A DNA stretch of 64,000 bases from Podarcis gaigeae (Eukaryota), in the NCBI GenBank assembly GCA_964106915.2, contig OZ066916.1, one strand, 5' to 3'. The notes beneath the pieces were generated by a model. That model saw nothing but the letters and a program-made list of their open reading frames with translations. It did no database searches and was not told the origin of the DNA. Positions 17,875 to 48,182 of this stretch are shown piece after piece. Every line of letters begins with the position of its first letter. Positions within the stretch are counted from its first letter, which is position 1. Position numbers and translations under genes: made by a program.

Positions 17875-19199
17875 CTGTAATAAAACAAAAATATTATTAA
17901 CAAAAGAACACGCTTTAGTCAAAACAACTTCATCCCATCTATTTATTTCAAAGCAATCTCACTTTTTTATCTTATGAATTTAAATGATAAACAGGCAACT
18001 TGCCTTGCTACCAAGAAAAGCAGACACTTTATAGTAACTATGTTCCAAAACACATTTATTTAATTCCTCAGGAAAGGTATTTGGGAAAGAACAGCTTGAC
18101 CCTAAATAATACTGCATAAGCAGCCTCATGTTGTGCCCATGCTGCTCTAAGATTTTCACAAATCAGGAGGTGGAACAGAGGAGAAATTGCTGGGTGTCCC
18201 CAGGCACATCTATTAACAGGCTTTTATAAGGCATCTCCTCCCATCATCTGTAGAAAGATTCACTTCCAAGTAACCAAGCAAAGAAGCTTTGTGAACTGGA
18301 TGAAAGAAAGGTGATCCCTTTCTTTGTTTTAAGGCATCAATGTGGTACAAGCAACTAAACTAACCCCCATTCCGCCCCCTCTTTTTTGCTCGCATTTTAA
18401 CTTCTGTGGGGAAAAAGCACATTTGTCCCATAGACAAGACAGATGCAGAGTTTCTAAGAGACCTATCAAGATCTGCACAGATTCAGTCAATCAATCAATG
18501 CACAGATTAAAAACCCTGACGTCTTTGTACCTGTTCTGAGCCTCAAGAGAGATTTGAACGTAAATGCCAGTTATGTTAGTAGCCAAAGCAGCTCAAAACC
18601 AAGATGCTAGACTAAGGAGTCAAACCATTCAAATCGTTTGCTCATTTTCTTTCTGTGGTACACAGAAATCCAGACCTTTCCCACAAGGTTATTTCAGAGT
18701 CTGCAACAGTGAGTTAAAGCATTGAAACAACAAGCCTTCATCCTGCCTGCTGGTTCCTCGTCCACACAGTGGGCTGGACAAACCTAACAGGTATGGAAAT
18801 CCTGTGAGATTGTGCTTTTTCCCATCCACTCTGAATACTCTGGCTGGGGCATTCAGTCAATACCTTGCTCTGAATACGCAGCCTGTATTGAACTTGTTCC
18901 GTTCCGAGTTTGATAAACACTTTTAAAGATTCAGGTTTTTTGATTTACACAAAATACAGATTCACTTCAATTTAGAGGATATTTGCTTTAGAGAATCTTA
19001 AAGGACACACAATCTGATTAGGAATAAACAGGACTGGAAGAGTCCTGTTTCCTTTATACAAGCCCCTGCTATTGAGGGTTAAAAAAGAGGAAACACGCCA
19101 ATTCACTTAAATTGAATTATTCCAGAACTGTTTTCACAATGATCTTATAAAAAAGTTAATCTCATGTTCAAATGTTTTAAGAAAAGCTCTTGTACTTGC

Positions 19200-19338
19200 C
19201 CTGTTTGCATTATAGTACAAGACAACAAGGTATCTGTTGCACACGTTGAATCCTGACAGATGATCACAAGCATTCTTGGCATCAAAGATATCTTCATAGA
19301 CAACGTAGGCTGTACCTCTAGTCTCAGGAGTATTTCCT
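19200..19338 (-). CDS. SF3B6: SF3B6 exon 3 (GC donor)
   Basis: 139 nt encoding (V)[46 protein letters not shown]; ends AGG|gcaagt. Confidence 0.96.
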
Positions 19339-19894
19339 CTGTAACAAAAAACAAAACAAAAAAATTAATGTTAGCAAAAGATAAGAAAAAAATCATGTTA
19401 ATATTTACACCTCTTTGTTGTAGTCACCGTTACATTCTGACCCTAGGAAAGGCAGTGACATCAATCCTATGCTGTCTCACTTGGAGGTGAACTCAATGAA
19501 ACTGTGCATTAGATTGGGCTGCGGAAGATTTGCCTATACAGTAACAATTTTCTCACAACAAATTGCTCCCTTTTGGGTCTATTAATTACCCCCCTGTAAA
19601 AAATCAAAACAAAAAACCCCAACCCAAACTCACACACAACCAAAACTCTCTACATAATTCTAATATTTTCACTCACGGAATATCCCCCATATTATCTATG
19701 TCTCTATGTGCATTGCCTATATTGGTTTGTTCCCCAGACAGAATTCAAATCAAGTGGGCTGATATATTTAGACTCCCAACTGCTTTATTTTACACTGAAA
19801 GCTGCAATAATGATCTGTCAGTCAACTAGAAAGCTACTTGACATAAGAAAATTCTAATTTCTATGCTTTGTTTGGCAACGTACAACAGACTTAC

Positions 19895-20013
19895 ACTCTG
19901 ATTTGTCGAATCGGTCCATATTTTCCAAAAATGTCATACATTTCTTCTGCTGTGATTTTATACGGTAAGTTTCTGATATATAAAATTCGATTCACTTCAG
20001 GGGGCAGACGGAT
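19895..20013 (-). CDS. SF3B6: SF3B6 exon 2
   Basis: 119 nt encoding [39 protein letters not shown](V); ag and gtaagt boundaries. Confidence 0.97.
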
Positions 20014-20593
20014 CTAGAGTCGATAAAAATTACAAACCAGAAGCAAATTAACAACATGATTTCTTTGTATGGTATGTAGATATGTAATCAGAGAATAATT
20101 TTAACTTTGGCAATGCAGAGGGTAGATGACCCTCAGGGGACCCTCAGGGGTCCTTCCAACTCTATGCAATTCTATGCAACTCTGCCTTGTTGCGAGCGCT
20201 ATCCAGGTCATCCCCAGCCAGCTTTGCTAACAGAAAAAGCACGACTCCTGGTCTCTACATCGGAGAAAGTTGGGAGGGTGTGTAGTTATGTGACTCCTGA
20301 TCCAAGGAAAAGAGCAACTATACAACCCTTAGAACACATTCCAAGGCAGCCCTGTATTGGGAAGTTTTTAGATGTTTTATTTCAATCAATCAATCAATCA
20401 ATCAATCAACATTTACTGGCATACAGAGAGGACAGGACCATACAAGTCGACGAATAAAAATTGGCATCTGTTCACAAGAGGAGATGCTCGGGGAGAAAAA
20501 CCATAGAGACCTAGTGGGGGTTTAATCTTTTATTGTGTTTTTATATATGTTGGAAGCCACCCAGAATGGCTGGGGCAAACTTGTCAGGTGGGT

Positions 20594-21164
20594 GAGGAAT
20601 AACAATAATGGTAGCCCCACAACATATGGGGGTGCCTCCCCAGAGTCCAAAGTAGGCTAATAATAATAATGCTCACCACAACATATAGGGGTGCCCCCAG
20701 AGCCCAAAGGCTAATTAATAATAACAATAATAATGACAGCCCCACAGCATATAGGGGAACCCCCTGAACCCGAAGGCTAATAATTAATAACGGCAACCCC
20801 ACAATATATGGGGGTGCCCCCCGAGCCCGAAGGCTAATAAATAATAATAATAACGACAGCCCCACAACATATGGGGTGCCCTCCAAAGCCCGAAGGCTAA
20901 TAATAATGGCAGCCCCACAACATACAGGGGTGCCCCCTGAACCCAAAGACTAATAATAATAATGGCAACCCCACAATATATGGGGGTGCCCCCCCGAGCC
21001 CGAAGGCTAATAAATAATAATAATGACAGCTCCACAACATATGGGGTGCCCCGCAAAGCCCGAAGAAGGCTAATAATAATAATAATAATAATGGCAGCCC
21101 CACAACATATGGGGTGCCCCGCAAAGCCCGAAGGGGGCTAATAATGATGATGATGATGATGATG

Positions 21165-21197
<33 letters not shown>

Positions 21198-21232
21198 GCA
21201 GCCCCACAACATATGGGAGTGCACCCCCCAGC
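20594..21232. repeat. Minisatellite, about 10 units of about 60 bp, in SF3B6 intron 1
   Basis: Recurring unit GGCT(AAT)nGGCAGCCCCACAACATATGGGGTGCCCCCnnAGCCCGAA. Confidence 0.92.
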
Positions 21233-21660
21233 GGACCCGCTTCACGCCCTTCCCACTTGACGCGCCTTCCTGAATGTCCCGAAAGTGGAGGAGGAAGAGG
21301 CGCAGAACCAGACGCGGGGGCAGAAAGGAGAAGCGGAGTCGGAAGCGAGGGAAGGGCAGCCGACGTGCAAAATGGCCCCGCCACGCACAGGAGAAAGGGA
21401 AAGGGGGGTCCCAGCTTACATTGGCGCGTTTCGCCGCTTGCATCGCCATGGCGGCGGCCTTGTGTGGGAAGCTGCTTCCGCTGCTGAGGGAAACGGGAGC
21501 GTCGCCGGCGCCGCGACTGACCGAGCGAGAGGGCCGCGAAGCCTCAGGACAGCCACAACCGCGTTCTGCGCCTGCGCCGGAAGAAGGCGCGCGGGGAACA
21601 TCCGCTTCGCCTCGCCTCTCTCCCGGATATGACGTCTGACTTCCTGCGCTCTGCCATAAG
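21230..21660 (-). promoter_or_regulatory. SF3B6 CpG-island promoter
   Basis: High CpG density around exon 1; NRF1-like TGCGCCTGCGC near 21567, TGACGTC near 21630 and ETS-like ACTTCCTG near 21639. Confidence 0.75.
21420..21449 (-). CDS. SF3B6: SF3B6 exon 1, coding part
   Basis: Kozak context GCCGCCGCCATGG; encodes MAMQAAKRAN followed by gtaag. Confidence 0.97.
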
Positions 21661-22259: not shown

Positions 22260-22645
22260 TATTTAAATGCTAATAGTCTACTAAATTTTGCATAAACTCA
22301 TTCCAAATGCTATCGTATTTATCCATACAGAGTCTGCGCCTGTAAGCAGTCTGTTCATAAATTGCCATTGATGTCATATCAGTCTATTGATTGAAGGGTA
22401 TAGCATATCTTTATTTTTCCAATTCCTCAGTATCAATCTTTTGGTCACCGTTAAGGCATGAAATATCCATTTCCGTTGTCCCGTTGATAATTCCCATACT
22501 GCAGGTATATAGTTCAATAAAATATCCGCTGAAAGATTTAACTTTTTCTGCACAGTCATATAGTTACACAGTCCAGCACTTTCTCCCAAAGCTTGTTCAG
22601 TAAAGAGCACTGTGCAAACATGTGTTTCAGAGAGACATATTTCAG
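22260..22645 (-). mobile_element. L1-clade LINE ORF2 3' fragment
   Basis: Minus-strand translation LKHMFAQC ... LLNYIPAVWELSTGQRKWIFHALTVTKRLILRNWK; related fragment at about 9790-10060. Confidence 0.78.
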
Positions 22646-22865
22646 AAAGCCTGAAATGATATGGTTTAGCCACAAGAGGGTAGCGGCAGAGTGTATTGTC
22701 GATTAAATGCTTTGGAAGTATTATTCCGCCAGGTGGCGCTGGCCCACGCCTGCACGGGAAATTTTGGATTTCCGCCTAAAGTCAACAGCACAGACTTACA
22801 ATAGCATAATGATAGACTGATAACTCCATTGATTGAAGATGAGATAGTCTGGTTCCTTAGATGCA
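22450..22865 (+). repeat. Direct repeat copy A (about 415 bp)
   Basis: Colinear, high-identity match to 35302-35723. Confidence 0.92.
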
Positions 22866-24059
22866 CAGGAAGCAGAAGATGCCACAGATGTTTTATTCCT
22901 GCCTCTCAGCCTTACATGTCTGAAACAAAAAAGAAGCAGAAATAATCCACAACAAGCCTCTGTTGCCCAGTATGAGCCAGGGGTCTACATACCCTCAACA
23001 CTGACTTATATTTCTTCACATGTGGCTTGAGGACCATGGGACAATATGTCCATAGATCTCCTTCCCATAGGGGATTGAATGTGAAAATTATTGTTACTGT
23101 GTTCATTAGTCAGGATCTTTATTTGTTTGCAGCAATGGGATTACTATTACAATCAAACCAGCCTTTTATGCAATTTTATTTTATGAATCTGAAATAAATA
23201 GGGAAGGGAGCAAATTGAAACCCCTCTCCACACATTACTAATAACCCCGTGTAGTATTTATGGGTTTTGTTTTTTAAAACATTTTATTAACACATACTGC
23301 ACTACTTCATGAATTTAGATTCATGGGCTTAATATTTTCTGTACGGTTTTTGCATGCTTGAAAAACAAGGTACTGCTTATTAATGAACAGATAGATTGCT
23401 TTTCAAAATTCCTCCATCAAATGAGCATTTAAAAACTTTGTGATTTAAAACTTTTATCCTATGATAAAAGAACTGCTTGGAATGACATAAATCTTCAACA
23501 CATGTCTAGAAATAATAATTATTACTAAACATTTAGAAAAATCTAAAATTTTCAAAGCATTGCACACATATTGATAGTGAAAATGGCCCTTGCCCCCAAG
23601 CTTGCAATGATACACATGATACAAAAGGGAAAAGGAATGGGGAGGGAAGAGGAAAGCAAACATTTGAAGCCAATGGATGGGGCCAGGCCCAGTGGTGGAG
23701 GAACCCTCTCTGGCACCTGGGGCGGCATAGCCCGTGCAAACTGCGCGTGTGCGGCATCTCGCATGTGTGCACTCCTTATGGAATGCCGCACATGCGCAGT
23801 CCATATGGGCTGCCACTTGAGCAGTATCCCATGCGGACTGCATATGCCCTTGGCCGTTCTACAGCTGGGGGAGGCAGGGGCCATCTTGTCACCCATCCCA
23901 GAGTGGCACCTGGGGCGGCCCCCCCCCTTTCTACACCCCTAGCCAGGCCAGGCCCTGGCCACCCCTGGTCTTCTTCTCCAATATGTGAACTGCATTTTTG
24001 TGTAAGTCCATCTATGTTGGTACCTTTTTCTTAGAAGTGCTTCTTGTTTTTCAATCTAG

Positions 24060-24182
24060 GACTTCAAGGCAAGGGTAAGCAACATCTCCACAATTAAGAA
24101 ATTCTTGGAGCCAGGCAGCCAGAGGAAATTTGAATTAGACGACAAGGCTCTTCAAGAGATCAAGAAGATTTTCAACATCTGA
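24060..24182 (+). pseudogene. Orphan last coding exon of a second alpha-class GST paralog
   Basis: tcaatctag|GAC TTC ... ATC TGA encodes DFKARVSNISTIKKFLEPGSQRKFELDDKALQEIKKIFNI*, homologous to the exon at 34249-34368. No upstream GST exons found between here and the SF3B6 promoter. Confidence 0.88.
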
Positions 24183-24442
24183 GAACATCTGCTATGAAGA
24201 TCACTACAAATACTGGCATGATTTTAACAAATCTGTGTGACTTCTCTCTTACCAGTTGGAGGATTAACAGTGTCGTCCTATTCATGTCTATTCAGCATTA
24301 GTTCCATTTGAATTCAGTGTAGCTTACTTCTGGGTAAATGTAGGTATAGGATTGGAGCCTAAATCCGTAAAATAGTATTTCCTCTTGGTTCCATAGTCTC
24401 AAATGCTTTTGATTGCAAACTCTTGAAAAATGTAGTAGATGA

Positions 24443-26114
24443 CTTCTTCCGGGTCGGCGCCATCGCCGAATGGCGGGCTCCCTCCGAGCTCCGGAGGGAG
24501 CCGGCTTGGCAGGGGCTGGGTCCTACCGCACCGGCGATGCGGGGACCCTTAAAAACCACGGCCAGATTGAGGCCGTGGACATGGAGACTCGGCTGGCACC
24601 GTTAGCGCCCTCCCGACTCGTGAAGGAGCCTTTTTAAAGGCTACGGATCGGGTGCCGGGGAGAAGCGTGGTGCTTTGAGTTCTCTGCTATCCCTGCCGAG
24701 CGCAGCCGCATGCCATCCGGCGGAGAGCGCTGACTTCTTCCATTGAAAATTCGGCTCTAAAGAAGAACCCGTGAGTAATTGGAATATGGACTAAAAAAAA
24801 GGGGATAAATTTTTAAAATTCGGAGCGAACGGGGGAGGTGGAAAAAAGGAAGTCAGCCTACCCCTAAATTGTAGAAGAGCCAAAACAAAGGACTGGACAA
24901 CTAAGATCGAGTGTAACCTTATCTTGCCGAATCAGCAACTTCGCGAGGGAAAATTATAAGATTGAGCTGGAGGAGAAAAGTGGAATTGTTTTTTTAAAAA
25001 AAAAAGCAACCCCCCCGGAATCCCTGGAGCGATTCGTGAAACTGCCTGGAGAAAAGTGATGGAGGTTTTGACAGCTGTCAAAGAGCTGTCAAAAAGGAAG
25101 ATTAAAATAGAGACTTTGTAATAAGGACTTTGCCGGTTATATTTGTTACAAATTGAATACAAACTGTTTTAAATATCGGACAACAAGCTACTTGGTCTGG
25201 TGGATGTGATTCTGGAAGGGAACTTTGTTATTGCAATCCACCTAGAGGAGCCGAGGGACATTGCATGTGTTTTTCACAGGAAATGTGAACTGTTGAATGG
25301 AACTTTCAATCTCCTGGGAAACTGCAGGAATGGAACACTATTTTGTCTACAGAGGTCTACACACTACAGGAAACAATGGAACTATTTGTTGGAAAATGAA
25401 AGGAACATGATGTAATGTTTTGCTTCAAGAATAACAAACCTCTGCAGAGACACTAGAAACTTTTGGAAAAAGAACATTTCTGTGGGAGAACAGAGAAATA
25501 AAAAGGAGGAGAATGATTGATAAGAACAAGGAAACAACAAGAATTGGACAGAACTGGGGGAACATTTGGGATATTCAGGTTTGACAAGCTTATGGATACA
25601 AAATTGGAGTTTTTACTCCTGGATATAAAAACCTGGATAGAAGAAATGGGCCCTTATTTGATAGACTCCTTCTACGATTGGACATCCGTAATTAAAGACT
25701 GGCAAAGAACCTGAGGGACATAGTGTAATGTGGGAACTCCAGGAAGATATTAGAAGTGGAGGGATAGGTGAAACGCAAAGGGGAAAGAGGGGAGGGAAAA
25801 TTGGAATCCAAAGGCTGTAAAATTACTATTTATATTTATCTTATTTCCATCTGTACTATGTTTGAAAGGGGGAAACTCGTTGAAGGGTATAGATCGATCT
25901 TAGGGGATGGGAATTTGGATAAATTGGGTTATTGATGAAGAGTGTAATTTGGGGATAAGAATTTGTTGAATTTAATTGCTTATTTGGAAGATTTGGAACA
26001 CAAGAGGGGGTAGGGAGGGGAAGTCCTAGTTATTGGCAATAGATTGGATTTAATTCGTTTTGATTTGTTCTAATTTGGAAAACCTTAATAAAAATTATTA
26101 TAAAAAAAAAAAAA
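24443..26114 (+). mobile_element. Non-autonomous L1-type retroelement, 1.67 kb
   Basis: TSD GAAAAATGTAGTAGATGA at 24425-24442 and 26115-26132; CpG-rich 5' end; AATAAA plus A-tail; no recognisable endonuclease or RT ORF. Confidence 0.85.
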
Positions 26115-26390
26115 GAAAAATGTAGTAGATGAGAACTCTTTTGTGAAGATTCTGAGGCCTCCTTTAGATATTAGTCTAATGCAACCTGCCGAAACTTGGT
26201 ATGATACCTTCCAAGGGTTTTGGACTACAGTTCCCATCAGCCACAGCCAGCATGGCCAACAGTCAAAGAATGAAATTGCCAGAGCCAACAAACATTTGAT
26301 ATTGTGCAAGGATTTTTTGCAGCCGGAACTCACTGGAACTGAATTCCACCACCTCTCTGGTTTATTCCAGAGTTCAAATGCTACTGAGTA

Positions 26391-26495
26391 GAGGATCACC
26401 ATAATGGCACTGTGTAAATCCACAAAAGGAGATGATGATAATACGGTGTGATGGTACAATAAAATGAAATAAAGCATTCTACAGCGTTTGTACTT
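26391..26495 (+). other. 3' UTR end and poly(A) signal of the orphan GSTA paralog
   Basis: Matches the intact gene's 3' UTR (aatggcac.gtgtaaatccacaaa and taaaatgaaataaagcattctaca, compare 34437-34556); AATAAA at 26468-26473. Confidence 0.8.
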
Positions 26496-27114
26496 CAGTG
26501 CCATGTTTTACTTGAGTAGTCAATAACATGTCTGGTCTGTCATGACTAGTTCCTGTTGTGCTTTGCGTAGATGTGACGGGATCTGTGTGGTCCTGCTGGA
26601 TTAGAGGCAAGCAAAATATATCCTATTAACGTACTTCCTGCCAGAAAATGAGCTGTTTCCATAGCCTTCTACAGCAATTAGACTGACCAGCCATAGCAGC
26701 AATTCTTTACCAGTCCACCATGCTATCCTCAAGGAACATTCTTCTCAGTTTTATGACAGCAACTTCAACTGTCACAAATTTTTCAAAGCCAGACATCAAA
26801 TATGTGATTTTCACTTGATCATCCAGATCAGGTATCTTACATAACAAATCAAGAATAATTTTTGAATTGCCTGTAGAAATCCAGTTTTGCATACCTTTAA
26901 TTGTAGTGATCTATTTGGCCCAACCCCCGCCAAAAGGTGGGTAGGACCAACAGGGAAGCCCTGTGTAGTTGACTTTTTTCTGTATTTTGTGGCTAGCAGC
27001 TGCAACCAGAGACTGCAGTGGCCTCCTGCCCAGTTATACAAAGGTTTCAGTTGAATATACACTACTAAGACCAGGAATGTTTGCCCTCAGTGCAGCTGTA
27101 CAGATACAATAAAC

Positions 27115-27369
27115 CGAGTTGCATCATGTTACGCAAGCGTGAGACAACCTTTCCCGTTGTGAATTAACTTTGCGTGACTGATTTGTTGTAGGTGAAAAGT
27201 CTCACGAAAGGCAGAGTAAGTGTTTTTCTATTTGCAATAGGGAGTTTCTGCTACAGATAAGCTGTTCTCTCAGAAGGTGGAGCTTCTGAGCTTTTATAAC
27301 CCTGAGCCACACAAGTTCGGGGCTCACTCTGCTTGAGAAGAACTTCCACTTGTTCAGGACTTGCAGCAG
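27115..27369 (+). promoter_or_regulatory. Putative GSTA promoter and non-coding exon 1
   Basis: TATA-like TTTATAA at 27293-27299, donor CAG|gttagt at 27369/27370, upstream XRE core TTGCGTG at 27170-27176 and bZIP-type sites. The first coding exon has an acceptor upstream of its ATG, so a non-coding exon 1 is required. Confidence 0.55.
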
Positions 27370-28032
27370 GTTAGTATTCTAAGGTAGACGATTGCTTTGG
27401 AGAGTCATTGGTCAAGAGCAACACCCTGGACAGAGGAGTAGTGCAGGGACAATTTTCAAAGACCTCACCTTTGCCCAAAAGTCTTGCTCTTCTTACCCGC
27501 AGGGTACTAAAGGTTTGTGGGTTGGGGAGGGGGGATACTGTAATCCTCAGACCTGTAATCCTCAGAGCAGAGACATTTCCCTTTGGACAGACCAAAGGCA
27601 GGAGCTGGGCAGTGGGCAGAGGTCTAAAAATGATATGGGGTTGGTCTTTGTTGCACCTCAGAGGAAAAAGAAATCTTGGGTAAGAATGGGAGAGAAATTA
27701 GATTCATTTAAAAAATAGTAACTCACCAAATTTCTTTTCCCAAAAACATAGCTATCCCTTGAAATTTGCACTGCTGTTCTCCAGCCAAATAATGGGTAAA
27801 AACACATATGGTGAGGTAAAATGTGCATATAAATGCATATATTATTGAAAAGAATGTAGATAATGGGTGTTGTTATCCAGGGTTGAGGAGGGTGCAGATG
27901 CCATCCAACTGTCTTAGGGACTCCACTCCGGATTTGCTTGGGGTTTACTCCTTAGCCTTTTCTTCCTAGGGCAATGGAGGTTTAGGGTCAGAGGCTACCT
28001 CCTCCTAGATGGGTTACCTTCCCAGATTGATG

Positions 28033-28542
28033 TGGAAATATCTAAATTAATGGTTCTTATTACCCTGAGTAGTACCGAGTTAAAAACAAAAGAGGAATGT
28101 AAATGGGTAAAATTGGTGGTAATTACAGCCAGACAGGTTATAGCGAGTAATTGGAAAAATGCAGAAGAGCTAGGGGTGAACCAAGGGAGGAAAAAACTGA
28201 ATAATATTATAATTTTAGAATACCTAACTCTGAAGATACATAGAATGAAAGGGCTTAAGGTCAGTGAGAAAGAGGAGGATTGGTTTGAGAAGATATTGAA
28301 TTATTTGGGTAGGTTTGAACAATTTGGGGCAATTAAAATGTTAAAAGTTAAATAAACCTTGTGGAGGGAGGAGTGTTAAGGTATATAGAAGTGTATATAT
28401 GGTTGATTTGAATATGTTATTATTGAATATTATTGAATATGTATATTATTGAATATATATACCCAATGTATCAGCCACCTGGGGGGTGGTTTCACTGTTT
28501 GTGTTTTGGTGGTTGATAAAAAATAAAATATTAATTAAAAAG
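28033..28542 (+). mobile_element. 5'-truncated L1-clade LINE
   Basis: ORF2 C-terminal-like ARQVIASNWK ... KILNYL, A-rich tail, imperfect 17-bp TSD at 28016-28032 and 28543-28559. Confidence 0.75.
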
Positions 28543-29144
28543 ACCTTCTCAGACTGATGAGCTCCACCTGCCCCTCACTTCCCTCTACAGCATGTGCAGA
28601 AACTGCCTTCTTGACCCTTGGACCCACTATTGGTCTCATCCCTCAACCTGCCAGAGCCCATCCTTGCATGGAGGGAAGGTCCCTAACTCACATGGGTTTG
28701 AGACCCATCAGCTATCCTTACCTGGTTGAGCCAGCCAGTCAGAGCCATTTCCCAGGGTGTGGCCCCTGTCACATGCTGGCAGCTTCTAGGAGCCACAGGA
28801 GAGTGCTGAGTGCAGAGTGGGAACCAAAGATAGACAAACAACCCTAGAAGGAGCATGATGTGTCTCTCACCAGTGGCAACTGGGGAAAACAGGTTGAGAG
28901 AAGGGTGTGTCCATGTAAGGAAATCTGAAACAGTTTTAAGTTAGAGGTGGTGCTTCAGATGTGATTCATCACTACAAACTCCCATCATCCCTGGCGGTTG
29001 GCCATGCAGGAAAGCCATGTGCCTGAGGAGATGAGAGGCAGCTGATGGCAATGACAATGGTGCGAGTACGAGGGGGAAGTTACAATTTTGTGGCTCTGGG
29101 AACATGGACCGTGGCTGTTCAAGAGGGGGGTGATAGTCATAGAT

Positions 29145-29400
29145 CATGGGTAGGCAAACTAAGGCCCGGGGGCTGGATATGGCCCAATTGCCTTCTAAAT
29201 TCAGCCCACAGACGGTCCGGGAATCAGCATGTTTTTACATGAGTAGAATGTGTGCTTTTATTTAAAATGCATCTCTGGGTTATTTGTGGGGCTTGGGAAT
29301 TCATTAATTCCCCCCCCCCCCAAAAAAATATAGTCCGGCCGCCCACAAGGTCTGAGGGACAGTGGACCGACCCCCTGCCGAAAAAGTTTGCTGACCCCTG
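29145..29400. mobile_element. Non-autonomous hAT element
   Basis: TIR-like ends CA.GGGT.GGCAAAC; 8-bp TSD TCATAGAT. Confidence 0.82.
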
Positions 29401-29648
29401 TCATAGATTGTTGTGGTTTTTTTTTAACTCTTCCTATTTTATCTGTGCAATAATATGCTACATCTGCTTGTGCTCTGTGATTATGAAAAAGCGTTTGATA
29501 AAAAATAAACCAGAAGGCTTGCTGTAAGCAATCACCAGAGCACCATTTTGAACAGTTGTCCTGCTCTGCAGTGGTTTCCCTATCAAACATGACCTCTCAA
29601 TCTCTCTCTCTGTCTCTCATCATAACAGGAAAGCAAACACTTAGGAAG

Positions 29649-29735
29649 ATGGCTGGGAAACCTAAGCTTTACTACTTCAATGGAAGGGGCCGAATGGAAA
29701 GCATAAGGTGGCTGTTGGCTGCAGCAGGAGTCGAG
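29649..29735 (+). CDS. GSTA: Glutathione S-transferase alpha class, first coding exon (exon starts 29629)
   Basis: Encodes [29 protein letters not shown] then gt; catalytic Tyr9 and Arg15 present. Paralog number cannot be assigned. Confidence 0.95.
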
Positions 29736-29917
29736 GTTTGTTTGTCTTCTCTGACAAAGCACCTTTCCCCCACCCCCCAAAAAGAATGAAGGGAACTGTT
29801 GTTTTTCCAGCATTCTTATATTTCAGACAGTTTCCAAATTTGGGTCCAGCATTATCATTTGTGAGGGAGGTGCCTGCTTCAGGCGGGGGATTTTATCTAT
29901 CCTGGAAGGGGCAGCTA

Positions 29918-30175
29918 CCGTATTTTTTGCTGTATAAGACTCACTTTTTCCCTCCTAAAAAGTAAAGGGAAATGTGTGTATGTCTTATGGAGCGATGCAG
30001 GCTGCGCAGCTATCCCAGAAGGCAGAACAGCAAGAGGGATTGCTGCTTTCGCTGCACAGCGATCCCTCCTGCTGTTCTGGCTTCTGAGATTCAGAATATT
30101 TTTTTTCTTGTTTTCCTCCTCCAAAAACTAGGTGCGTCTTGTGGTCTGGTGCATCTTATAGAGCGAAAAATACGG
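29918..30175. mobile_element. Tc1/mariner MITE, family D (CCGTATTTTT TIR)
   Basis: TA|CCGTATTTTT ... AAAAATACGG|TA; inverted copy at 46486-46709, relatives at 52583-52747 and about 7269-7580. Confidence 0.82.
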
Positions 30176-30246
30176 TAATTGATGAGTTATTGTCATTATT
30201 ATTGTACTTTTGCAGCTAAGTAGGGGGGGGAGGAAACATGATTGTG

Positions 30247-31113
30247 TGGACAGGCGGAGTCCCCCAAACCCTGGGTGTCCCCCATATGGAATAACGACTC
30301 AAGACAACATGCTATGGGATTAAAATTGGCCACAACTTTATTATGTTTCAGATGTGGGTAGACCTTGACTCAGGCATTGGGTGTTTATCCCTCTCAGTCC
30401 CCCACCGGGGATCTGGGGAACATCAGGGTTATCCAATGGGGGGGGGATGGGCTGGCTCTGGAGAACATATGTTGAAGCAGAGAGAGCCTGCCCCTGTTAC
30501 GCCACCGTCGCAGGGGAGAGCAATGACAACCTCCAGGTGCACGGCCAAAGCCTCCCCTCTGAACAACCCCTTTAACGGGGAACCCTGGTATCGCCGCCGC
30601 AAAGAGGAGGGGGGCGTGGGTCACCGCTGCACGCCCCCCCCATTTAGGGAAGATAGACTAAAGGATCCTGACCAAGGCCTGATACTGCCAAAGTTGTGAC
30701 GTTTTGCTACAGGAAAGGCAAAACATGCCAATGCAGGAGAATTTCTTTGCGACCCTTCAACAGCGACCTTGACGCAGCAGTGCCCACATACCTGTGGAGA
30801 AAAGGTTAACCTGCAAAAGAAGTCTTAACTGAGGGTGGGTAGGGTGGGAGAAGCTCTGGAGCCAACTGACAATTCCCGGGTAAGATCCTCCCCCTATTGT
30901 ATGGGCAGGTGGTCCCTCCCCCTAACTGGCCTGATCACCTTGGCAACGCCTTCCCAGGCGGGATTGGACAACTGGCTGAGGTAGGCAGAGATCTCCAGGT
31001 ATCCCACCTGGGGAAGGCCAAGCCAAGCCTGTGCTAATGGTGCCACATAGGGTCCAGGGGGCTTCATGTGACCACACAAAGGGCGCCCCCCCATTTAATG
31101 TGGGGAGCCATCA
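30247..31113 (-). mobile_element. Probable solo LTR in a GSTA intron
   Basis: TG...CA termini, 5-bp TSD TTGTG (30242-30246 and 31114-31118), minus-strand AATAAA about 90 nt from the 3' end, GC-richer than flanks. Confidence 0.6.
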
Positions 31114-31164
31114 TTGTGGGATTTACTGCTTCAAGTGCTAAAATGATATGACTAGCCTGTAGTA

Positions 31165-31523
31165 CAGTGGTACCTCGCAAGACGAATCCCTCGTAAGACG
31201 AAAAACTCGCAAGATGAAAGAGTTTTTCGAGTTGCTTCGCAAGACGAATTTCCCTATGGGCTTGCTTCACAAGATGAAAATGTCTTGCAAGTTTGTTTCC
31301 TTTTTCTTAAAACCGTTAATACCCAGGGTGCATTCAGGGGGTGCAGTTGCAACTTGACTTCGAGGAGCAACTCATAGCACCCGGTGTGGTAGCCTTTTTT
31401 GAGGTTTTTGAAGGCTTTGGTGATTTTTGAAGCTTTTCCAAAATCCGTGCTTCATAAGACGAAAAATTCGCAAGACGAAAAAACTCGCAGAACGAATTAA
31501 TTTCATCTTGCGAGGTACCACTG
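31165..31523. mobile_element. Tc1/mariner MITE, family B (CGCAAGACG subrepeats)
   Basis: TIR CAGTGGTACCTCGCAAGA; TA flanks. Confidence 0.85.
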
Positions 31524-31718
31524 TACTTGATTTGTGCATGGGAAACATTTGTTGTTCTGTCCCAGACAGAGAAAATTATTGGGCGGGCCGGCCCAGAATT
31601 TGGCTGTGAAAGGGGAGTTTTCATCAAATTTTGAAAACTTGAAAGGCCCTGTGTCATTTTTGGAGCCTGAAATTATTTCATGAGACCCTTGAAATATTCT
31701 GCCTCTTTTATTTTTTAG

Positions 31719-31770
31719 TTTGAAGAACAATTAATTGAGACAAAAGAATATCTAGAAAAATTAAAGAATG
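31719..31770 (+). CDS. GSTA: GSTA coding exon 2
   Basis: 52 nt encoding FEEQLIETKEYLEKLKN(G); ttttag and gtgagt boundaries. Confidence 0.93.
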
Positions 31771-32283
31771 GTGAGTATGTTATCTGAATATCAGTGGGAC
31801 TGTCTTCTAGTACAGTAAAGCCTTATAGTCTTAATAGCAGGGGTTTTCAAAGTGGACTTGTTTCTCCAGTTCTGCATTGTGCACACTTTCAGGCAGGAAT
31901 ATGTGTCAATACACAGTTGTGATCTGGTTATATTGCATTTTTCTCTCTTCTTTGAAAGAAAAGAGAGTTTTCCAGATACCCACAACACATACCACTCAAC
32001 TCTGCATTGTGCAGAATGGTTTGCTTGTTTTTTAGCTGGAGAACAGAAGTAGCTTAAATAACATACAAAACTAGTTTCCAATGTGTGATTGCTGTACTAA
32101 TTTAGCACATGTTCTGCAAAAGGGTTTTGAGGGACAAGCAGAGGCAAACATGATTATCGCAAAGGCACAATGTAAAAGTAAAGTCTCAAAATCAAAGCAT
32201 GGCTTGGGAGATGCTCCTGAAAATTTAATTTCCATAGTAATTACCTGGGAGGATGGACTGATTTTTCATTTTCCTTTCACAAG

Positions 32284-32416
32284 GTGGAGACCTGCTCTTT
32301 CAGCAAGTGCCCATGGTGGAAATGGATGGGATGAAGATGGTGCAGAGCCGAGCTATTCTCAACTACATTGCCGCCAAGTATAATCTCTCCGGGAAGGACA
32401 TGAAGCAGAGAGCATG
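32284..32416 (+). CDS. GSTA: GSTA coding exon 3
   Basis: 133 nt encoding [43 protein letters not shown](W). Confidence 0.95.
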
Positions 32417-33055
32417 GTACTGTAACACTCCTTTAAGTTTGGTTACTAAATGCATACTTTGGTTTGCTGTACATGATATAAGATCTTCTTTGGTCTGTCA
32501 TATGATCTACTGATGAGTTATGAGTCAGCATGTTTCATCTCTACTGTCAGATTGGGCAAGAAAGGGTACAGTATGAGATAATTTGACCGCCCAGTCCCAA
32601 CAAAGTTCATGTGGACTGGTTCATTAGAAATCAATGAAGTTTTATGTAATCCCAATAGGAGATTGGGAGGTCGTTGTCCCTTCCCAATGTTTTTTTTTTG
32701 GGGGGGGGGTTGTTGCAAATGTATAAAATTGATTTTTGATATAAGGCTTTCCTTATAAAAGGTGTAGCTGGTGAAGATCACTATAATGTCAAATTATAGG
32801 GGCTTTTGTTGCATAGAGCGAGGCTCTTTCCAGGGAAAATGCCCTTTCTGCAACATACAGAATCATTGTACTTGTTTTTCTGCTGGGTCATCACACATTT
32901 TTGCCTGTGACACTACTGCCCAATTCCCCCACAAGGCTTTGGCTCTGCATTATCATAATTAGTACTATTGCTGCTGCTACTACTGCTGCTATCACTACTG
33001 TTTTTCTTATTATTACCTGAGTATGAGAAAAGGAAACACTGTCTCTTTCAAATAG

Positions 33056-33197
33056 GATTGATATGTATTGCGAAGGTGCTATGGATCTGAATGAATTGAT
33101 AATGATGCTTCCCTTCAAGCCAGCTGACAGCAAGGAGAAGGAGTTTGCAAACGTTATTGAAAAAGCCACCACCAGATACTTCCCAGTCTTTGAAAAG
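33056..33197 (+). CDS. GSTA: GSTA coding exon 4
   Basis: 142 nt encoding IDMYCEGAMDLNELIMMLPFKPADSKEKEFANVIEKATTRYFPVFEK. Confidence 0.95.
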
Positions 33198-33677
33198 GTA
33201 TGGGGCGAAGGAAACTTACAAACCTTTTAACACAACAAAGTCACCTGTGCTCAGCTGGAGTTGGCAGCTGGTAATTTTGATAGGACTGCTTGTCTCATCA
33301 GAAATCATTTCCTTATTCCTTGTATTTTCCAAGCTTCTGAGCTAAAAGTAAAAAAAGTAAAACAAAAAAATTAGCTGTGTGAGAGAAGATCAGGAATCAC
33401 ACACAGTGTTCGTTTACCATGTGAACTCTGATCTCAGAATCTGCCCTGCCTCATTGAAACATGACAAGCAGTGGTTTGGGAAGAGGGAATGTAATGATCA
33501 AACTTCTCTTTCTTAGCCAGCAGTTTGTTAGAAGACATGAATCCGAACTGATACAAATACTCTCGATCTCCTGATACAATATAATCTGGGCGCGTGATAG
33601 TCAAAAGTGGTTCAGATATAGATTCTCCATTTTGTGTATGTACCTGAAGTACTCTTCAAACATTTCCTGCTCTATAG

Positions 33678-33809
33678 GTCCTCAAAGATCATGGACAAAA
33701 TTACCTGGTAGGAAATCAGCTCAGCAGAGCAGATATTCAATTGCTTGAAACCATTTTAATGGCAGAAGAGCTGAAGGCTGATATTCTCTCCAAATTCCCT
33801 CTTTTAAAG
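33678..33809 (+). CDS. GSTA: GSTA coding exon 5
   Basis: 132 nt encoding VLKDHGQNYLVGNQLSRADIQLLETILMAEELKADILSKFPLLK. Confidence 0.95.
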
Positions 33810-34200
33810 GTAAGCATGCTTACTGAAGCATAAGCAAAGTTCTAGTATGGCACTTTTATTCTTTGCATATCTAAAACACTATCGTCTCTGGATTTCTATT
33901 GCAAAAAGTCTAAATCACACAGGAGGCCCACATTCATGGATAAGCCTTCTGTGAATTAAATTTAGACACAAACAGGTAACCTACCTACGATTATAGACCT
34001 GCAATGGAGCTCAAATGTTGACCTCCCTCTCCAAAGGTGCATGCCTGAAATAATTGGGTTTAGTGTATGTACAAAGTTTGAGTACATATAAAGTTTATCA
34101 CTTGTAGTTTCATTATTGACTATGAAATCATAGTAACCGTAAGCAGCAAATGATTATTTGGGGATGCCACCATTTCTCCTTTTCTCTACTAAAATATTTT

Positions 34201-34201
<1 letters not shown>

Positions 34202-34244
<43 letters not shown>
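34202..34244 (+). repeat. (CT)n microsatellite forming the GSTA last-exon pyrimidine tract
   Basis: About 21 CT units directly before ctag|GCC. Confidence 0.95.
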
Positions 34245-34247
<3 letters not shown>

Positions 34248-34248
34248 G

Positions 34249-34368
34249 GCCTTTAAAGAGAGAATAAGCAACATCCCAACAGTGAAGAAATTTCTGCAGC
34301 CTGGTAGTCAAAGAAAACCACCAACAGATGAAAAGGCTATTGAAAAGGCAATGAAAATTTTCGCCTAA
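34249..34368 (+). CDS. GSTA: GSTA last coding exon
   Basis: 120 nt encoding [39 protein letters not shown]. Total CDS is 666 nt (221 aa); AATAAA at 34541-34546. Confidence 0.95.
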
Positions 34369-35301
34369 ATCGTGGCTGAGGATCACAAATGATGCACTAT
34401 TGTATTCACAGGCAATGGGCAAAAACTGAAATGGGACCACAATGGCACAGTGTAAATCCACAAAGCTACAGTAAGAACCAAAATAACTAACAGAACAAAA
34501 GGAAGTGGTTATAATATTGTGCCGCACTACACTAAAATGAAATAAAGCATTCTACAACTTTTGTATTCTGGTTGTTTTAGTTCCAGTATGATGTCATTTA
34601 CATTAATCTTAAACAGCAGGGGAGCACATAAGCAGCCTTGTCATAGGTCTTAGGCCCTTTACCATATTTCTTAATCAGATGGTTTAAGATGTAACATTGG
34701 TTTATATATTTAGCTAAGTGTGCATTTATGCTTATTTATTCTATGACTGAGACCTTAAAATTCTCGTAACAATCCCCCATTTGGGGCAATAATTTAACTA
34801 AAATTGTTGCCCCACTAAACAACCTGATGTCCACTCTTCCCAAATGTTGGAATGGGATGTGTTTATGTAACCCTGAGGAGACTTGCATGTCAGGTCTCTT
34901 AAGCCTATTCACAAGTGTAGCAGTTGGACATAGGATTCTGTATCATATAAAATAACACTATCTTGTTTTGTTCTATTCTTAAAATACTGGTGGCATTGGT
35001 GGCATTCAAACTCTTTGAGAGAAGCCTTCTCTACCTTTTCACTTTTAAAATGAGGGTCTATGCTTTACATTCAGCAGGAAGGTCCATTTAAAATGAAATA
35101 TGATCAAGGTCCATTTAAAATGAAATATGACCAAATAATTGTGGGGTGGTGGAATGAAAGCAGAATTTCTTGCATGAAAAAAACACTGCATATTTCCCAG
35201 AGAATGGGTTGGTATAAAATATAGTATAAACAGTATAAAATTTACCTGGCGCCTTCATTATACACCTTTAGGCGCCAGGCAAAAATGTCCTTTTTTAAAC
35301 T

Positions 35302-35723
35302 GTTAAGGCATGGAAAATCCATTTCCGTTGTCCCGTTGATAATTTCCATACCGCAGGTATATAGTTCAATAAAATATTCTCCGCTGAAAGATTTAACTTT
35401 TTCTGCACAGTCATATAGTTACAAAGTCCAGCACTTTCTCACAAAGCTTGTTAAGTAAAGAGCACTGTGCAAAAAATGTGTTTCAGAGAGATATGTTTCA
35501 GAAAGCCTGAAATGATATGATTTAGTCACAAGAGGGTAGCCGCACAGTGTATTGTCGATTAAATGCTTTGGAAGTATTATTCCGCCAGGTGTCGCTGGCC
35601 CAAGCCTGCGCGGGAAACTTTGGATTTCCGCCTAAAGTCAGCAGCACAGACTTACAATAGCAATAATGATAGACTGATAACTCCATTGGTTGAAGATGAG
35701 ATAGCCTGGTTCCTTAGCTTGCA
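35302..35723 (+). repeat. Direct repeat copy A'
   Basis: Colinear, high-identity match to 22450-22865. Confidence 0.92.
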
Positions 35724-35735
35724 TAGCTCAGTCGG

Positions 35736-35778
<43 letters not shown>

Positions 35779-35911
35779 ATATTTTATTAAGTTTAACAAT
35801 AAAAAACAAACAACCACAGGGAAAAAAAAAAAAAAACACAGGGAAAATATAAAACATAACAATACAAGGTTTCACAATACAAAAATACAAACATTTAACC
35901 TAACAAGGGAT

Positions 35912-36235
35912 CAGTGTTTTTCAACCTTTTTTGGACAAAGGCACACTTGTTTCATGAAAAAAATCATGAGGCACACCACCATTAGAAAATGTTAAAAAAA
36001 TTAACTCTGTGCCTATATTGACTAGATATAAAGTAATTCTCTTGAATAGGAATCAAATAAACACAAAGAAAGTATTTTATAATTACTTTATTATGAAATA
36101 GTAAGTAAACAGAAATATGAAAAATTATAAAATACTTTATTTTTAAATCTTTCGAATTTTTCAAGTTTTCCCACGGCACACCAGGCAACATCTCGCGGCA
36201 CTAGTGTGCGGCGGAACAGTGGTTGAAAAACACTG
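35912..36235. mobile_element. Non-autonomous hAT-like element
   Basis: TIR CAGTGTTTTTCAACC ... GGTTGAAAAACACTG; TSD not clear. Confidence 0.75.
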
Positions 36236-36354
36236 GCCTAGATGACCCTCGTGGTCCCTTCTCTGTCTCACACACCCTGACAAAGTTAGCTGCTGCCTGC
36301 CCATAGGGCACAATGTGTAAAGTGCCAAATTTTACAAAGTGAAACAGTATAAAG

Positions 36355-36604
36355 TTCGCCTGGCGCCTTCATTATACACCTTTAGGCGCCAGGCAAAAAC
36401 GTTCCTTTTTAACCAGGTCTTTGGTTGATTTGATTGACATTCTATGCCCTTTTAAAATCTGATTCCTTTTGGGGCAGGGAGGTGTTATTGGGTTGTTGTT
36501 TTTATTTTGATTATATATATATAGTGGTTTTATATTTTGATTTTGTTCTGTGAACCGCTCTGAGACCTCCGGCTATTGGGTGGTATACAAATGTAATCAA
36601 TCAG

Positions 36605-36636
<32 letters not shown>
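36355..36636 (+). mobile_element. L2-like LINE 3' end with (TCAA)n tail
   Basis: GTGAACCGC.CTGAGACCTCCGG-type terminal stem followed by a simple-repeat tail. Confidence 0.65.
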
Positions 36637-36959: not shown

Positions 36960-37240
36960 TTGCGCGTGAACGCCAAGCGAAGAAGTCTAGCGAGGACATT
37001 CCCATGCGACGACCCGCCAGCTGGCCCGCATGTGCACCTCTTTTAGTTTTTGTATGTCTAGGGTTATAGCGAGGGGAGGGGCGGGGCGGGGGCGGGTCCG
37101 CGGCGAGCAGAAGGCAACATGCCGGCTGGGAGGCAGCGGCTCTTGGAAGCCTCCGCGGGGAACGGAGGCAGCGGCGGCCAATGGGTGATCGTTGCGCCAG
37201 GTAAAGAACTCCTTGCAAAGAGGCGCGGGGAGAGGGCTGC
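36960..37240 (+). promoter_or_regulatory. RNASEH2B CpG-island promoter with GC boxes
   Basis: Stacked GGGCGG motifs at about 37078-37096, just upstream of the ATG; CpG-rich. Confidence 0.7.
37119..37200 (+). CDS. RNASEH2B: Ribonuclease H2 subunit B, exon 1
   Basis: Encodes MPAGRQRLLEASAGNGGSGGQWVIVAP(E) then gtaaag; lies in the CpG island; phase 1 fits exon 2. Confidence 0.85.
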
Positions 37241-38081
37241 TGCAGCTGTGAAAGGATGGGCTCTTTTCTGGGGTGGGGGTGGAATCTCTTTTCATTTGAA
37301 TGGATGGATCTTCCCTCCCTTGTCCTGAAGTTAAGTTGTGCCCTCTTGGGGCAACGCGTGTCTGTGTGCGCGCGTGTATGTATGTATGTGGGTATCCCCG
37401 CTAAAGGCATTTCTGGAGGATTTGATCAGTGCCATAAGGAACAGAAAACATCTCGGCAAGAATTCGCAGAAACGAAACTGGAAGTCACTTCCTGCAGCAC
37501 TTGGTGCTTTTTTTTTTTTTTTAAAGGGAGGTGGTGGGAGCCTGCTAGCAAGATAATGAAAATATGATCGCTTTTTTAAATGAGTTGTGGCCGATAAAGG
37601 CCTCGATCCAAGGAGCGGCTCTGACCAGTTACACTTGTCTAAGGGGGTCTGGACTTGTTTTCCTCAGTTTGCTGCTGTGCTACGTTGGGACAGCTACGAT
37701 ATGGCCCCAGAGGATTTACTGTTTAGAGCTGGTGTGTGTGTGTGTGTGTAAAGAGCATAAATATATATACTGAGGGCATCCCTAAGGTCTTAGTCTAGCA
37801 TCTCATTGGATCACAGCCATAATCATACCGGTTTGTCTTTCTGTGGCGGTCGCAGTCATGAGCGGGAATTCATGGTAAAGCCAGTTCTTTGAATGCAAGG
37901 GTGGAGACCACTATTAAAATGCTGCAGCATTTGAACTGACTTCAGTGACATGCAGGCATTGCAGATTTTTTTTAAAAAGCAGGGGGTTTGCCAATATTTG
38001 CAATGGGTGGAGAAGATAGAGGACCTTCTCACAGTTGTGCCCTTCTCTCTGGCACACACATGGACGTGCATGCATGTCAAC

Positions 38082-38114
<33 letters not shown>

Positions 38115-38463
38115 TGTGCGTGCACACATACACAACCATCTCACACAAAGTGTGGGAGGATGAGACACAGGAAGCAAGGGTTTCCTCTTTCTGCCTTTCC
38201 CCTGTCACTCAAGTCTCCTTGTCCTCCTGATCTTCTTCTCAGTCTGACCTCTTTTTCCTCCATTTCATCTGCCTCTGAGATGGGATTCTGACCATGTACA
38301 CATGGCCTGGTGTAGCCAGGATTTATTTTCGGTGGGGGGCAGGCTTTATGTTGGGGGGGCAGAACCAAGTTATCTGTTATGCAATTGGTCAGTTAGTTAT
38401 TGTTGTTAGCCGCCCTGAGCCCGGCTTCGGCTGGGGAGGGCGGGATATAAATAAAATTATTTA

Positions 38464-38494
<31 letters not shown>

Positions 38495-39095
38495 GATGGG
38501 GGGAAGCTGCCCCCCTGCCCTCTTGGCTACACCCATGAGTCTTTAACATATCAAACTGCAGGAGTGGGAGCCTGCCAGTTAAGACTGTTTTCCCATGTGG
38601 CAAAACAAACACTCAAATCCCCACAAGGAAAGATCTAGCACATCAGGGACAGATATTGTGGTCTAACATGTTTCCTATTGGTTTGAAGTTTCTTTTATGT
38701 CAGGTGGCATTCAAGCCCACGCAGTATTTTACCACATCACAACTCTTATTGCTATGTTTTGTTGCGTGTGTAGACTAGGCCTACAACTGTGGGGAATGAG
38801 GGCTGCTCCCCTGTCCTGCTTTTTGCCTCTTCTCTCTTCATCTTGGCGGTTGCTGTGCTTTGCACTGCTCTCTCTTTTCTCCTCCTTTCTTCTGCTTTGC
38901 CTTCCAGCTTCAGAAAGCATGGAGAGAGCAATGGCTCTGCCTGGCTGTGTTTTCAGGTAAAATTAGGATGAGTAGCATGAAATGTTGTGGCAGCTCAAAC
39001 ATACTCTCTCCTTGCCTATGAGTTATGATGATGTTGACTTGGTGAATCTGAGTGCACAGCTACTAGATTGCAACCCTGTTTAATAGAAGTCTGTA

Positions 39096-39337
39096 CAATG
39101 GTACCTCGGGTTACATACACTTCAGGTTACATGCGCTTCAGGTTACAGACTCCGCTAACCTAGAAATATTACCTCAGGTTAAGAACTTTGCTTCAGGATG
39201 AGAACAGAAATCGTGCTCCAGCAGCGCGGCAGCAGCAGGAGGCCCCATTAGCTAAAGTGGTGTTTCAGGTTAAGAACAGTTTCAGGTTAAGTACGGACCT
39301 CCGGAACGAATTAAGTACTTAACCTGAGGTACCACTG
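39096..39337. mobile_element. Tc1/mariner MITE, family A
   Basis: Same TIR and body as the 2176 copy, in opposite orientation. Confidence 0.88.
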
Positions 39338-39498
39338 TATTCAGAAGATAGGGGCTCACCTGATCTTCTGGGGGCAATTCTTACTCTTCACAGGTAACAA
39401 GGGAAGCCTCAACCATATTTACAGTAACAGTAGTTAGATGTGAATATTTTTAAATATATGAAGGGTATATCTCACTTTGGAATTTAACTTTTTTTCAG

Positions 39499-39570
39499 AA
39501 TCTGCTACTAATCTGCCAAAGAAGCCAGGCTCTGAGCCTTTATTTACAAAACTGCGTAATCCAAGTACAG
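39499..39570 (+). CDS. RNASEH2B: RNASEH2B exon 2 (GC donor)
   Basis: 72 nt encoding SATNLPKKPGSEPLFTKLRNPST(G); ends CAG|gcaagt. Confidence 0.88.
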
Positions 39571-39616
39571 GCAAGTCTGAAATTGTAATTCTTTCCTTAC
39601 CTTCAAATTTGAATTA

Positions 39617-39858
39617 CAGTCGTACCTTGGTTCTGAAACACCTGCGACCTGAATGTTTTGGCTCCCGAACACCGCAAACCTGGAAGTGAGTATTCCAGTT
39701 TGCGAACGCTTTTTGGAAGCTGAACGTCCAACGTGGCTTCTGCAGCTTCCGATTGAGTGCAGGAAGCTCCTGTAGCCAATCAGAAGCTGCACCTTGGTTT
39801 TTGAATGTTTCGAACAGACTTCTGGAACGGATTCTGTTGGAGAACAAAGGTACCACTG
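39617..39858. mobile_element. Tc1/mariner MITE, family C
   Basis: TIR CAGT.GTACCTT; related partial copy at about 58148-58351. Confidence 0.8.
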
Positions 39859-40308
39859 TATTTCCTTTGTAGACTGAAGCTTTAAAATGATGTGTTTAAA
39901 AAGAGTAGGGCTTTTTGTCTATTCAGTAAATGTTTTCTGTAAGATTATGTCTGTATGTTGTGTATTGTGTTTTGCTGTAAAATACATGGGTTTGGGGGGC
40001 TGAGTTAAGCTGCCAGCTGTTCCTCTGTCCCAGAGCTAATAAAACAATGGCTACATCCAAGGTATATTGCTGTTGACATCCGTCTGTCTCGAGAGACAAT
40101 GGAGTGTGCCGCTGGGGGTGAATTAAAACCACTGTGTTAGCAGCACCACAAGCCTGGGCAATGTGTATGGAAGTCCTGGGCTGCCCAGATCCATGTCAGA
40201 TTTCTTTGAAATTAATTCCCAAGGGTCTAAAGGACTGGGATATGTTGATCTCACATGATATCTGTAATAGACTTAGTTCAGACATCATGCCAAACTATAG
40301 TTAATACA

Positions 40309-43467: not shown

Positions 43468-43498
<31 letters not shown>

Positions 43499-48136: not shown

Positions 48137-48182
<46 letters not shown>

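Follow-up and report, generated by a model that had tools for sequence, protein, structure and literature searches.

How does a complete alpha-class glutathione S-transferase (GST) gene come to lie in the short gap between two other genes, bracketed by doubled pieces of the DNA around it? The question is raised by a 64,000-nucleotide stretch of the Podarcis gaigeae genome (contig OZ066916.1 of assembly GCA_964106915.2; hereafter the window), where the order along the locus is A–cassette–B′|A′–x–B. A′ and B′ are second copies of the host segments A and B, x is a spacer, and the cassette carries the GST gene, which we call Y, behind the orphan last exon of a second paralog, X (Table 1). The explanation that we consider on balance probable is a single replication-based event with three template switches, in which A was re-copied and B′ was left behind as a templated insert.

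The repeats were identified by a self-BLAST of the whole window. A and A′ are 93.6% identical over 419 columns (E 2e-179) and B′ and B are 91.5% identical over 71 columns (E 7e-22); the doubling of A involves 414 bases in direct orientation. Substitutions amount to 21 in 410 ungapped columns for A/A′ (5.1% ± 2.1; Kimura two-parameter distance 0.053) and to 6 in 71 for B/B′ (8.5%), two imprecise values that overlap within error. The repeats are real and the rearrangement is old. An initial annotation, made by a model from the letters of the window, had described A and B as recurring in this order; the self-comparison of 21–37 kb that it proposed was run here as part of the whole-window search, which recovered both pairs and shifted their coordinates by 2–6 bases. 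That annotation had also held that flanks shared outside transposable elements speak against independent insertions, and the flanks bear this out: (i) the 280 aligned bases of A outside its long interspersed element (LINE)-like piece are present in two copies only within the window, and (ii) 12 bases of flank 5′ of the L2-like piece are common to B′ and B, an agreement with a chance of 1.6e-7 at a fixed place. LINE insertion starts from the 3′ end of the element. Both A′ and B′ lack LINE 3′ ends and thus are not fresh LINE insertions. From their reading frames we tentatively take the piece in A to be L1 and that in B to be L2; neither Pfam nor the Atlas confirmed the L1 label. Pfam returned no family for 5 of 15 exon pieces, which include the orphan exon and the frame of the LINE-like piece in A, an Atlas search with the LINE-like frame gave only bacterial hypothetical matches, all below 0.9, and an exact 29-base pattern of A had 0 matches in metagenome contigs.

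Gene Y encodes 221 amino acids and looks working, with an open frame, five GT–AG introns and a poly(A) signal at 34541. Its exons contain the GST_N and GST_C domains recognized by Pfam, and the protein has Tyr9, the residue given a catalytic role in alpha GSTs in PMC3584069. When the sister protein P0012, which differs from the window Y at 10 of 221 positions, was used to query the PDB, all 33 matches at E <1e-60 were GSTs, mostly named A1–A4 or alpha, and two of the alignments were gapless over 220 residues. Domains, Tyr9 and nearest solved relatives all fit the assignment of the predicted protein to the alpha class. RefSeq lists models of the proteins nearest to Y. The initial annotation was right in finding a GST gene in the cassette; its label is incomplete in that the cassette also holds the last exon and 3′ untranslated region (UTR) of X. 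The orphan exon is 62% identical to the last exon of Y, and no other X exon was found in the window by tblastn. Since only the last exon and 3′ UTR of X are present, the left end of the cassette falls within the last X intron. The X 3′ UTR is itself interrupted by an insertion with no long open reading frame, a CpG-rich 5′ end and its own poly(A) signal (26087), which is single copy in the window. Positions 26720–26841, upstream of the non-coding first exon of Y, match an additional 5′ exon that model P0002, a P. lilfordi Y, includes, and because of this match the cassette may contain a second Y start site.

Three junctions, J1–J3, can be read in this assembly, to which their phasing applies. 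The initial annotation saw microhomology at about 35300. At J3 the overlap is 0–3 bases, the 2–3-base register requires one extra A and a blunt join fits with no extra change; random junctions have an overlap of at least 2 bases in 16% of cases and of at least 3 bases in 5%. Microhomology at J3 is thus weak and within chance. At J2, one 7-mer with eight plus-strand copies in the window occurs three times, and the parent B has it once (36347), which may reflect repeated priming. When the inferred empty allele is considered, the two points of return (the start of B and the start of A) and the point of exit (the end of A) all fall within 1,114 bases.

In the event that we propose, a copying strand would have run through A to 22860, switched to the last intron of X in the GST cluster and copied on through Y. 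It would then have returned to B, 624 bases past the end of A, copied 71 bases and jumped back ~1.1 kb to the start of A, with normal copying from there on. The donor would have been retained, and Y would thus have become two genes. The site of insertion would be a short gap between two head-to-head housekeeping genes, and the source would likely lie just beyond GUCY1B2. The predicted empty allele is A–x–B with ~2.8 kb between the two start codons; when the added 12,852 bases are subtracted from the window, the start codons of RNASEH2B and of its left neighbor, an RRM gene that we take to be SF3B6, stand head to head 2,818 bases apart. A single event is favored because the three host points lie within 1,114 bases and the A/A′ and B/B′ divergences overlap. 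Capture of the GST DNA by template switching, one of the options in the initial annotation, is probably correct, with the cassette as the incoming DNA given its start in an X intron. The same annotation read the repeats as the scar of a rearrangement, which is supported by the shared flanks and the missing LINE 3′ ends. The head-to-tail duplication of A..B that it proposed could have occurred as a separate earlier step and is unnecessary for the structure.

The donor site was located from annotated proteins of other species and from the order of their accessions. P. lilfordi CAI5769454 (P0010), annotated as ‘GST alpha-3’, is a 449-residue protein in which a complete X is fused to a Y, probably because the annotation joined two tandem genes across the non-coding Y first exon. 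It matches the cassette at 18 of 21 residues in the orphan exon and at 22 of 22 in the Y first exon, in the same order. The P. lilfordi accessions run Y (CAI5769449–450), RNASEH2B (451–452), GUCY1B2 (453) and X+Y (454). The identity of 453 as GUCY1B2 was predicted ahead of the look-up, which returned that gene, and the first three genes of the series match the order in the window itself. If this order is positional, the donor likely lies just past GUCY1B2, beyond the right end of the window. The order of RefSeq accessions, which are only locally clustered and not positional, was set aside in inferring gene order. In each Podarcis species Y apparently shares a contig with RNASEH2B or GUCY1B2. 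Retention of the donor is seen at the protein level in other species, where P. lilfordi has X+Y and each of three Podarcis species has two Y proteins; B is retained in the window.

Copy number and phylogeny suggest that the capture happened on the Podarcis stem, and it is likely fixed in wall lizards. Two different Y proteins are found in all three of the Podarcis species listed, and one each in Lacerta agilis and Zootoca vivipara. All Podarcis Y proteins form one group without Lacerta and Zootoca (support 97/91 with 16 rows and 95/92 with 12 rows, the smaller tree leaving out X, an older P. muralis model and the two paralogs at greater distance). The two topologies under which the split would be older were each rejected (p-AU, the P-value of the approximately unbiased test, 0.009 each). 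The second Y copies share residues 82 and 91 with other paralogs of the cluster, which we read as conversion inside the cluster. Podarcis is placed as sister to all other Lacertini in PMC6733905, and PMC8114931 gives a root calibration of 37.55 million years and major Podarcis splits at 16.7–9.8 million years. By arithmetic, an event within that age bracket implies 0.7–2.7e-9 changes per site per year for A/A′, a rate that seems reasonable.

Several observations weigh against this account. The two P. lilfordi Y copies pair together (92/87), and a topology that joins the donor-side P. lilfordi Y to the second P. muralis and P. raffonei copies was rejected (p-AU 0.010). To account for this, either gene conversion, the likely cause, or a history of their own is needed, and conversion could in addition make the Podarcis Y group look too young. 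The single Y of Lacerta and Zootoca comes from a 24-candidate search and annotation, and the three Lacerta Y accessions are one sequence, behind which an identical pair could hide. Gene order draws on the P. lilfordi ENA accessions only and assumes that ENA order is positional; the accessions placed in this way do not include SF3B6 or full-length FKBP1B, the presumed left neighbors. The Zootoca RefSeq series (RNASEH2B 855–856, Y 857, GUCY1B2 858) fits neither Y site. The donor is known from annotated proteins. Finally, the end product of one event is identical to that of the two-step routes considered below.

The best surviving of these routes, which we consider unlikely though far from negligible, is a large head-to-tail duplication of everything from the left end of A to Y, with RNASEH2B, GUCY1B2 and X included and B′ inserted from a template where the two units meet. 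A later deletion would have stripped the first unit of x and B, of RNASEH2B and GUCY1B2, and of most of X. This route yields exactly the same three junctions, and a donor that seemingly lies on the same chromosome right after GUCY1B2 is what it expects. Surplus gene copies are commonly lost after a tandem duplication. The deletion, for its part, would need to begin 414 bases into a unit of more than 28 kb (35299 to past the window end), a second RNASEH2B or second x has left no trace in the window, and the donor would have to be in the same orientation as the cassette.

A smaller duplication with later capture is distinctly improbable. Here A–x–B|A–x–B would have formed first from a 1.1 kb unit, and the cassette would have replaced x in the first copy, either during break repair or by recombination of an A–cassette–B allele or circle with the empty allele. 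J3 on its own is a valid tandem joint for the 1,114-base unit A..B, and the number of junctions needed, three, is the same as in the other models; two independent events would have had to strike the same 1.1 kb. The circular intermediate that the initial annotation allowed for loses ground in particular, because X precedes Y in the cassette as in the donor model, and the permuted order that marks a circle in PMC7188851 is missing. We know of no A–x–B|A–x–B or A–cassette–B allele.

It is very improbable that the cassette is ancestral at this site and that, once the A..B unit had been duplicated, its second copy lost the cassette, a deletion also entertained in the initial annotation. The accessions of the Lacerta and Zootoca Y are close to those of RNASEH2B, and their single Y could sit here. 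Under this scenario, however, x has no source (best E 0.27 against the cassette, no match), and a cassette that begins in an X intron has the other X exons absent from the window and present in the P. lilfordi model after GUCY1B2. Weakest of all, and scarcely credible, are independent transposon insertions or a false duplication in the assembly: LINE-like DNA does occur in both A and B, but A′ and B′ lack LINE 3′ ends and share 280 and 12 bases of flank with their parents, the 5% between A and A′ is more than expected between haplotypes, and what look like other assemblies have Y on both sides of RNASEH2B (P. lilfordi) and the orphan exon after FKBP1B (P. muralis). That these look like other assemblies follows from the window Y, which differs at 4–15 of 221 positions from the P. 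lilfordi and P. muralis Y proteins compared; the distance to one P. muralis and one P. raffonei protein is 4 of 221. A LINE-mediated retrocopy or 3′ transduction was rejected, as five coding introns are kept, no poly(A) is present at 35227 and the doubled segment is 414 bases long. For gene capture by a DNA transposon, self-BLAST found no inverted match between the cassette ends, which were viewed with no motif test made.

Table 1. Features of the rearranged locus and its neighbors (positions in the window)
Feature	Position	Strand	Description
Segment A	22447..22860	+	LINE-like piece on minus strand to ~22580, then ~280 bases of other flank
J1 (A to X intron)	between 22860 and ~22868	+	Left end of cassette
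Cassette	22861..35227	+	12,367 bases; probably copied from the alpha-GST cluster
Orphan last coding exon of paralog X	24060..24182	+	Open frame of 40 codons, AG acceptor intact
Insertion in X 3′ UTR	24443..26114	+	1,672 bases, A-rich tail, exact 18-base target duplication (24425, 26115)
3′ UTR end of X	26398..26492	+	Resembles Y 3′ UTR; poly(A) signals 26458, 26468
Y TATA-like box and non-coding first exon	27295..27369	+	22/22 residues match linker of fused P. lilfordi X+Y model
GST Y coding exons	29649-29735, 31719-31770, 32284-32416, 33056-33197, 33678-33809, 34249-34368	+	Gene span 29649..34368
J2 (cassette to B′)	35212..35239	+	Three copies of one 7-mer at 35212, 35224, 35233
B′	35228..35298	+	71-base copy of B: 12 flank bases and start of L2-like piece; right end cut
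J3 (B′|A′)	35298/35299	+	Join of B′ to A′
A′	35299..35717	+	Second copy of A; left end cut inside LINE-like piece
Spacer x	35718..36341	+	624 bases, single copy: (TA)n, A-rich tract, inverted-repeat element ~35912-36235, ~105 bases of flank
B and remaining L2-like 3′ end	36342..36636	+	B = 36342-36412; (CAAT)n tail
FKBP gene, last two coding exons	12108..13988	+	Pfam domain; presumably FKBP1B (also the name of the P. muralis model)
RRM protein gene, left neighbor	17790..21449	-	Pfam domain; CpG island 21001-22000
RNASEH2B, right neighbor	37119..51378	+	CpG island ~36500-37500
GUCY1B2-like gene, 3′ exons	57138..62470	-	Gene continues past window end, toward the probable donor

The orphan exon appears to have found a second use. 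A search with it against 1.84 billion representatives gave one match at E <1e-10 among the 37 listed, P0086, identical at 39 of 40 residues. P0086 is XP_077782526, a P. muralis ‘FKBP1B isoform X2’ in which 66 unrelated residues precede the orphan exon. This P. muralis RefSeq model, which splices FKBP1B onto the orphan exon, is new here, and by placing the exon downstream of FKBP1B in another assembly it supports the arrangement seen in the window. The first 66 residues had no usable match in the Atlas; in another frame they are compatible with the start of an FKBP, and the first FKBP exons lie outside the window. The splice phase fits: an AG stands directly before the orphan exon and also before the FKBP exon at 12108, and in the FKBP frame the orphan exon has 11 codons and then a stop. 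From splice phase and exon order, a chimeric transcript would skip the last two FKBP1B exons and cross SF3B6 antisense, and its product would be a truncated FKBP or else that of the odd frame in the annotation. The join itself is an annotated gene model. It is likely that the orphan exon now serves as an occasional last exon for FKBP1B read-through transcripts; the insertion in the X 3′ UTR could terminate such a transcript.

Some features of the surrounding genes are recorded here. A CTCF-like motif, scored against a consensus, is exact in A (22726–22739) and has one change in A′ (35582–35595); the three matches with at most one mismatch, against 1.01 expected, are a number reached in 7 of 100 shuffles and are not significant, which makes the motif a lead at most. 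The first intron of SF3B6 contains a minisatellite (20598–21232) of ~60-base units with (TAA)n cores, and an FKBP intron contains, within a transposon-like element, a GC-rich tangle of short direct and inverted repeats (12460–13055). Within RNASEH2B, intronic positions 44449–44904 match 47475–47749 at 82–87% identity in two pieces, which at the former site flank an inserted element; this is an older local duplication or an unrecognized repeat. The second RNASEH2B exon seemingly ends at a GC rather than a GT donor (39573–39576). RNASEH2B and GUCY1B2 apparently lie between SF3B6 and the alpha-GST cluster, and these three blocks are on different human chromosomes. In Tiliqua, GUCY1B2 and GST Y are on contigs of equal length (314 Mb), as are GUCY1B2 and RNASEH2B in Hemicordylus (459 Mb), and linkage of SF3B6, RNASEH2B, GUCY1B2 and GST may on this account be old in squamates.

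It is also possible that the Y copies have diverged in function. In numbering that is gapless with human alpha GSTs, Lys106–Lys107 and Ser or His at 110 are found in the second P. muralis and P. raffonei Y copies, where the window Y, Lacerta and Zootoca have Ile–Met and Pro; P. lilfordi Y carries neither Lys106–Lys107 nor the changes at 110. Position 107 is a leucine that contacts substrate in GSTA1-1 (PMC3584069). The changes at 106, 107 and 110 may be a lead to functional divergence, judged from these residues. A bolder idea, which strikes us as rather improbable, is that a single copy-paste error in the Podarcis stem lineage changed the wiring of three genes together and that selection then retained it. 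If so, an independent GST copy would have let the cluster copy change its substrate pocket (Lys106–Lys107); FKBP1B would have gained a last exon, with read-through that crosses the antisense splicing-factor gene and truncates FKBP1B; and a head-to-head promoter pair would have been split and an insulator-like site doubled.

The mechanism class to which we assign the locus is already known, and the locus is a new germline instance of it. The open-access titles and abstract openings that were listed do not mention the locus; annotation tables of Podarcis genome papers could hold the duplicate. With vertebrate alpha-class GSTs (GSTA1-1, A3-3, chicken GST 3) Y shares the GST_N and GST_C domains and Tyr9; it differs in lying outside the tandem cluster, between two CpG-island genes. 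Duplication mediated by extrachromosomal circular DNA (Takahashi and Innan 2020, PMC7188851, as outlined there) is likewise non-tandem and changes structure at insertion, but its mark, a permuted donor order, is absent here at exon resolution, and the doubled segment is host rather than donor DNA. Insertions attributed to fork stalling and template switching or microhomology-mediated break-induced replication (FoSTeS/MMBIR; Gu et al. 2016) are, in the cases that PMC5120786 outlines, clinical and recent and span tens to hundreds of kb or more, whereas the present one has a 414-base host duplication and a 12 kb insert and is apparently common to several species.

The closest likeness is to the templated-insertion cycles and local n-jumps outlined by Li et al. 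2020 (PMC7025897), in which copied templates are strung at one locus with donors kept, the copying path comes back to the host and replicates one of its segments again (here A/A′), and a whole gene can be moved to new regulatory surroundings. At our locus, (i) two templates, the cassette and B′, are strung between A and A′; (ii) a host segment of 414 bases, A/A′, is re-replicated; and (iii) the donor is kept, on protein-level evidence from other species. Templates from other chromosomes, typical of the ‘cycle’ class as first described, are not found, and the local n-jump class fits instead. The events of PMC7025897 are from somatic cancer genomes with templates typically on other chromosomes; the one described here is local, germline and ~5% diverged. 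Template-switch insertions are known mostly from tumors and clinical genetics, and here is an apparently old germline case that several species have retained. Each of its three junctions can still be read to the base, and the gene that it produced looks functional. The case offers a compact example of how a gene of a tandem cluster may leave that cluster with its own promoter and make a leftover exon available to a neighboring gene.

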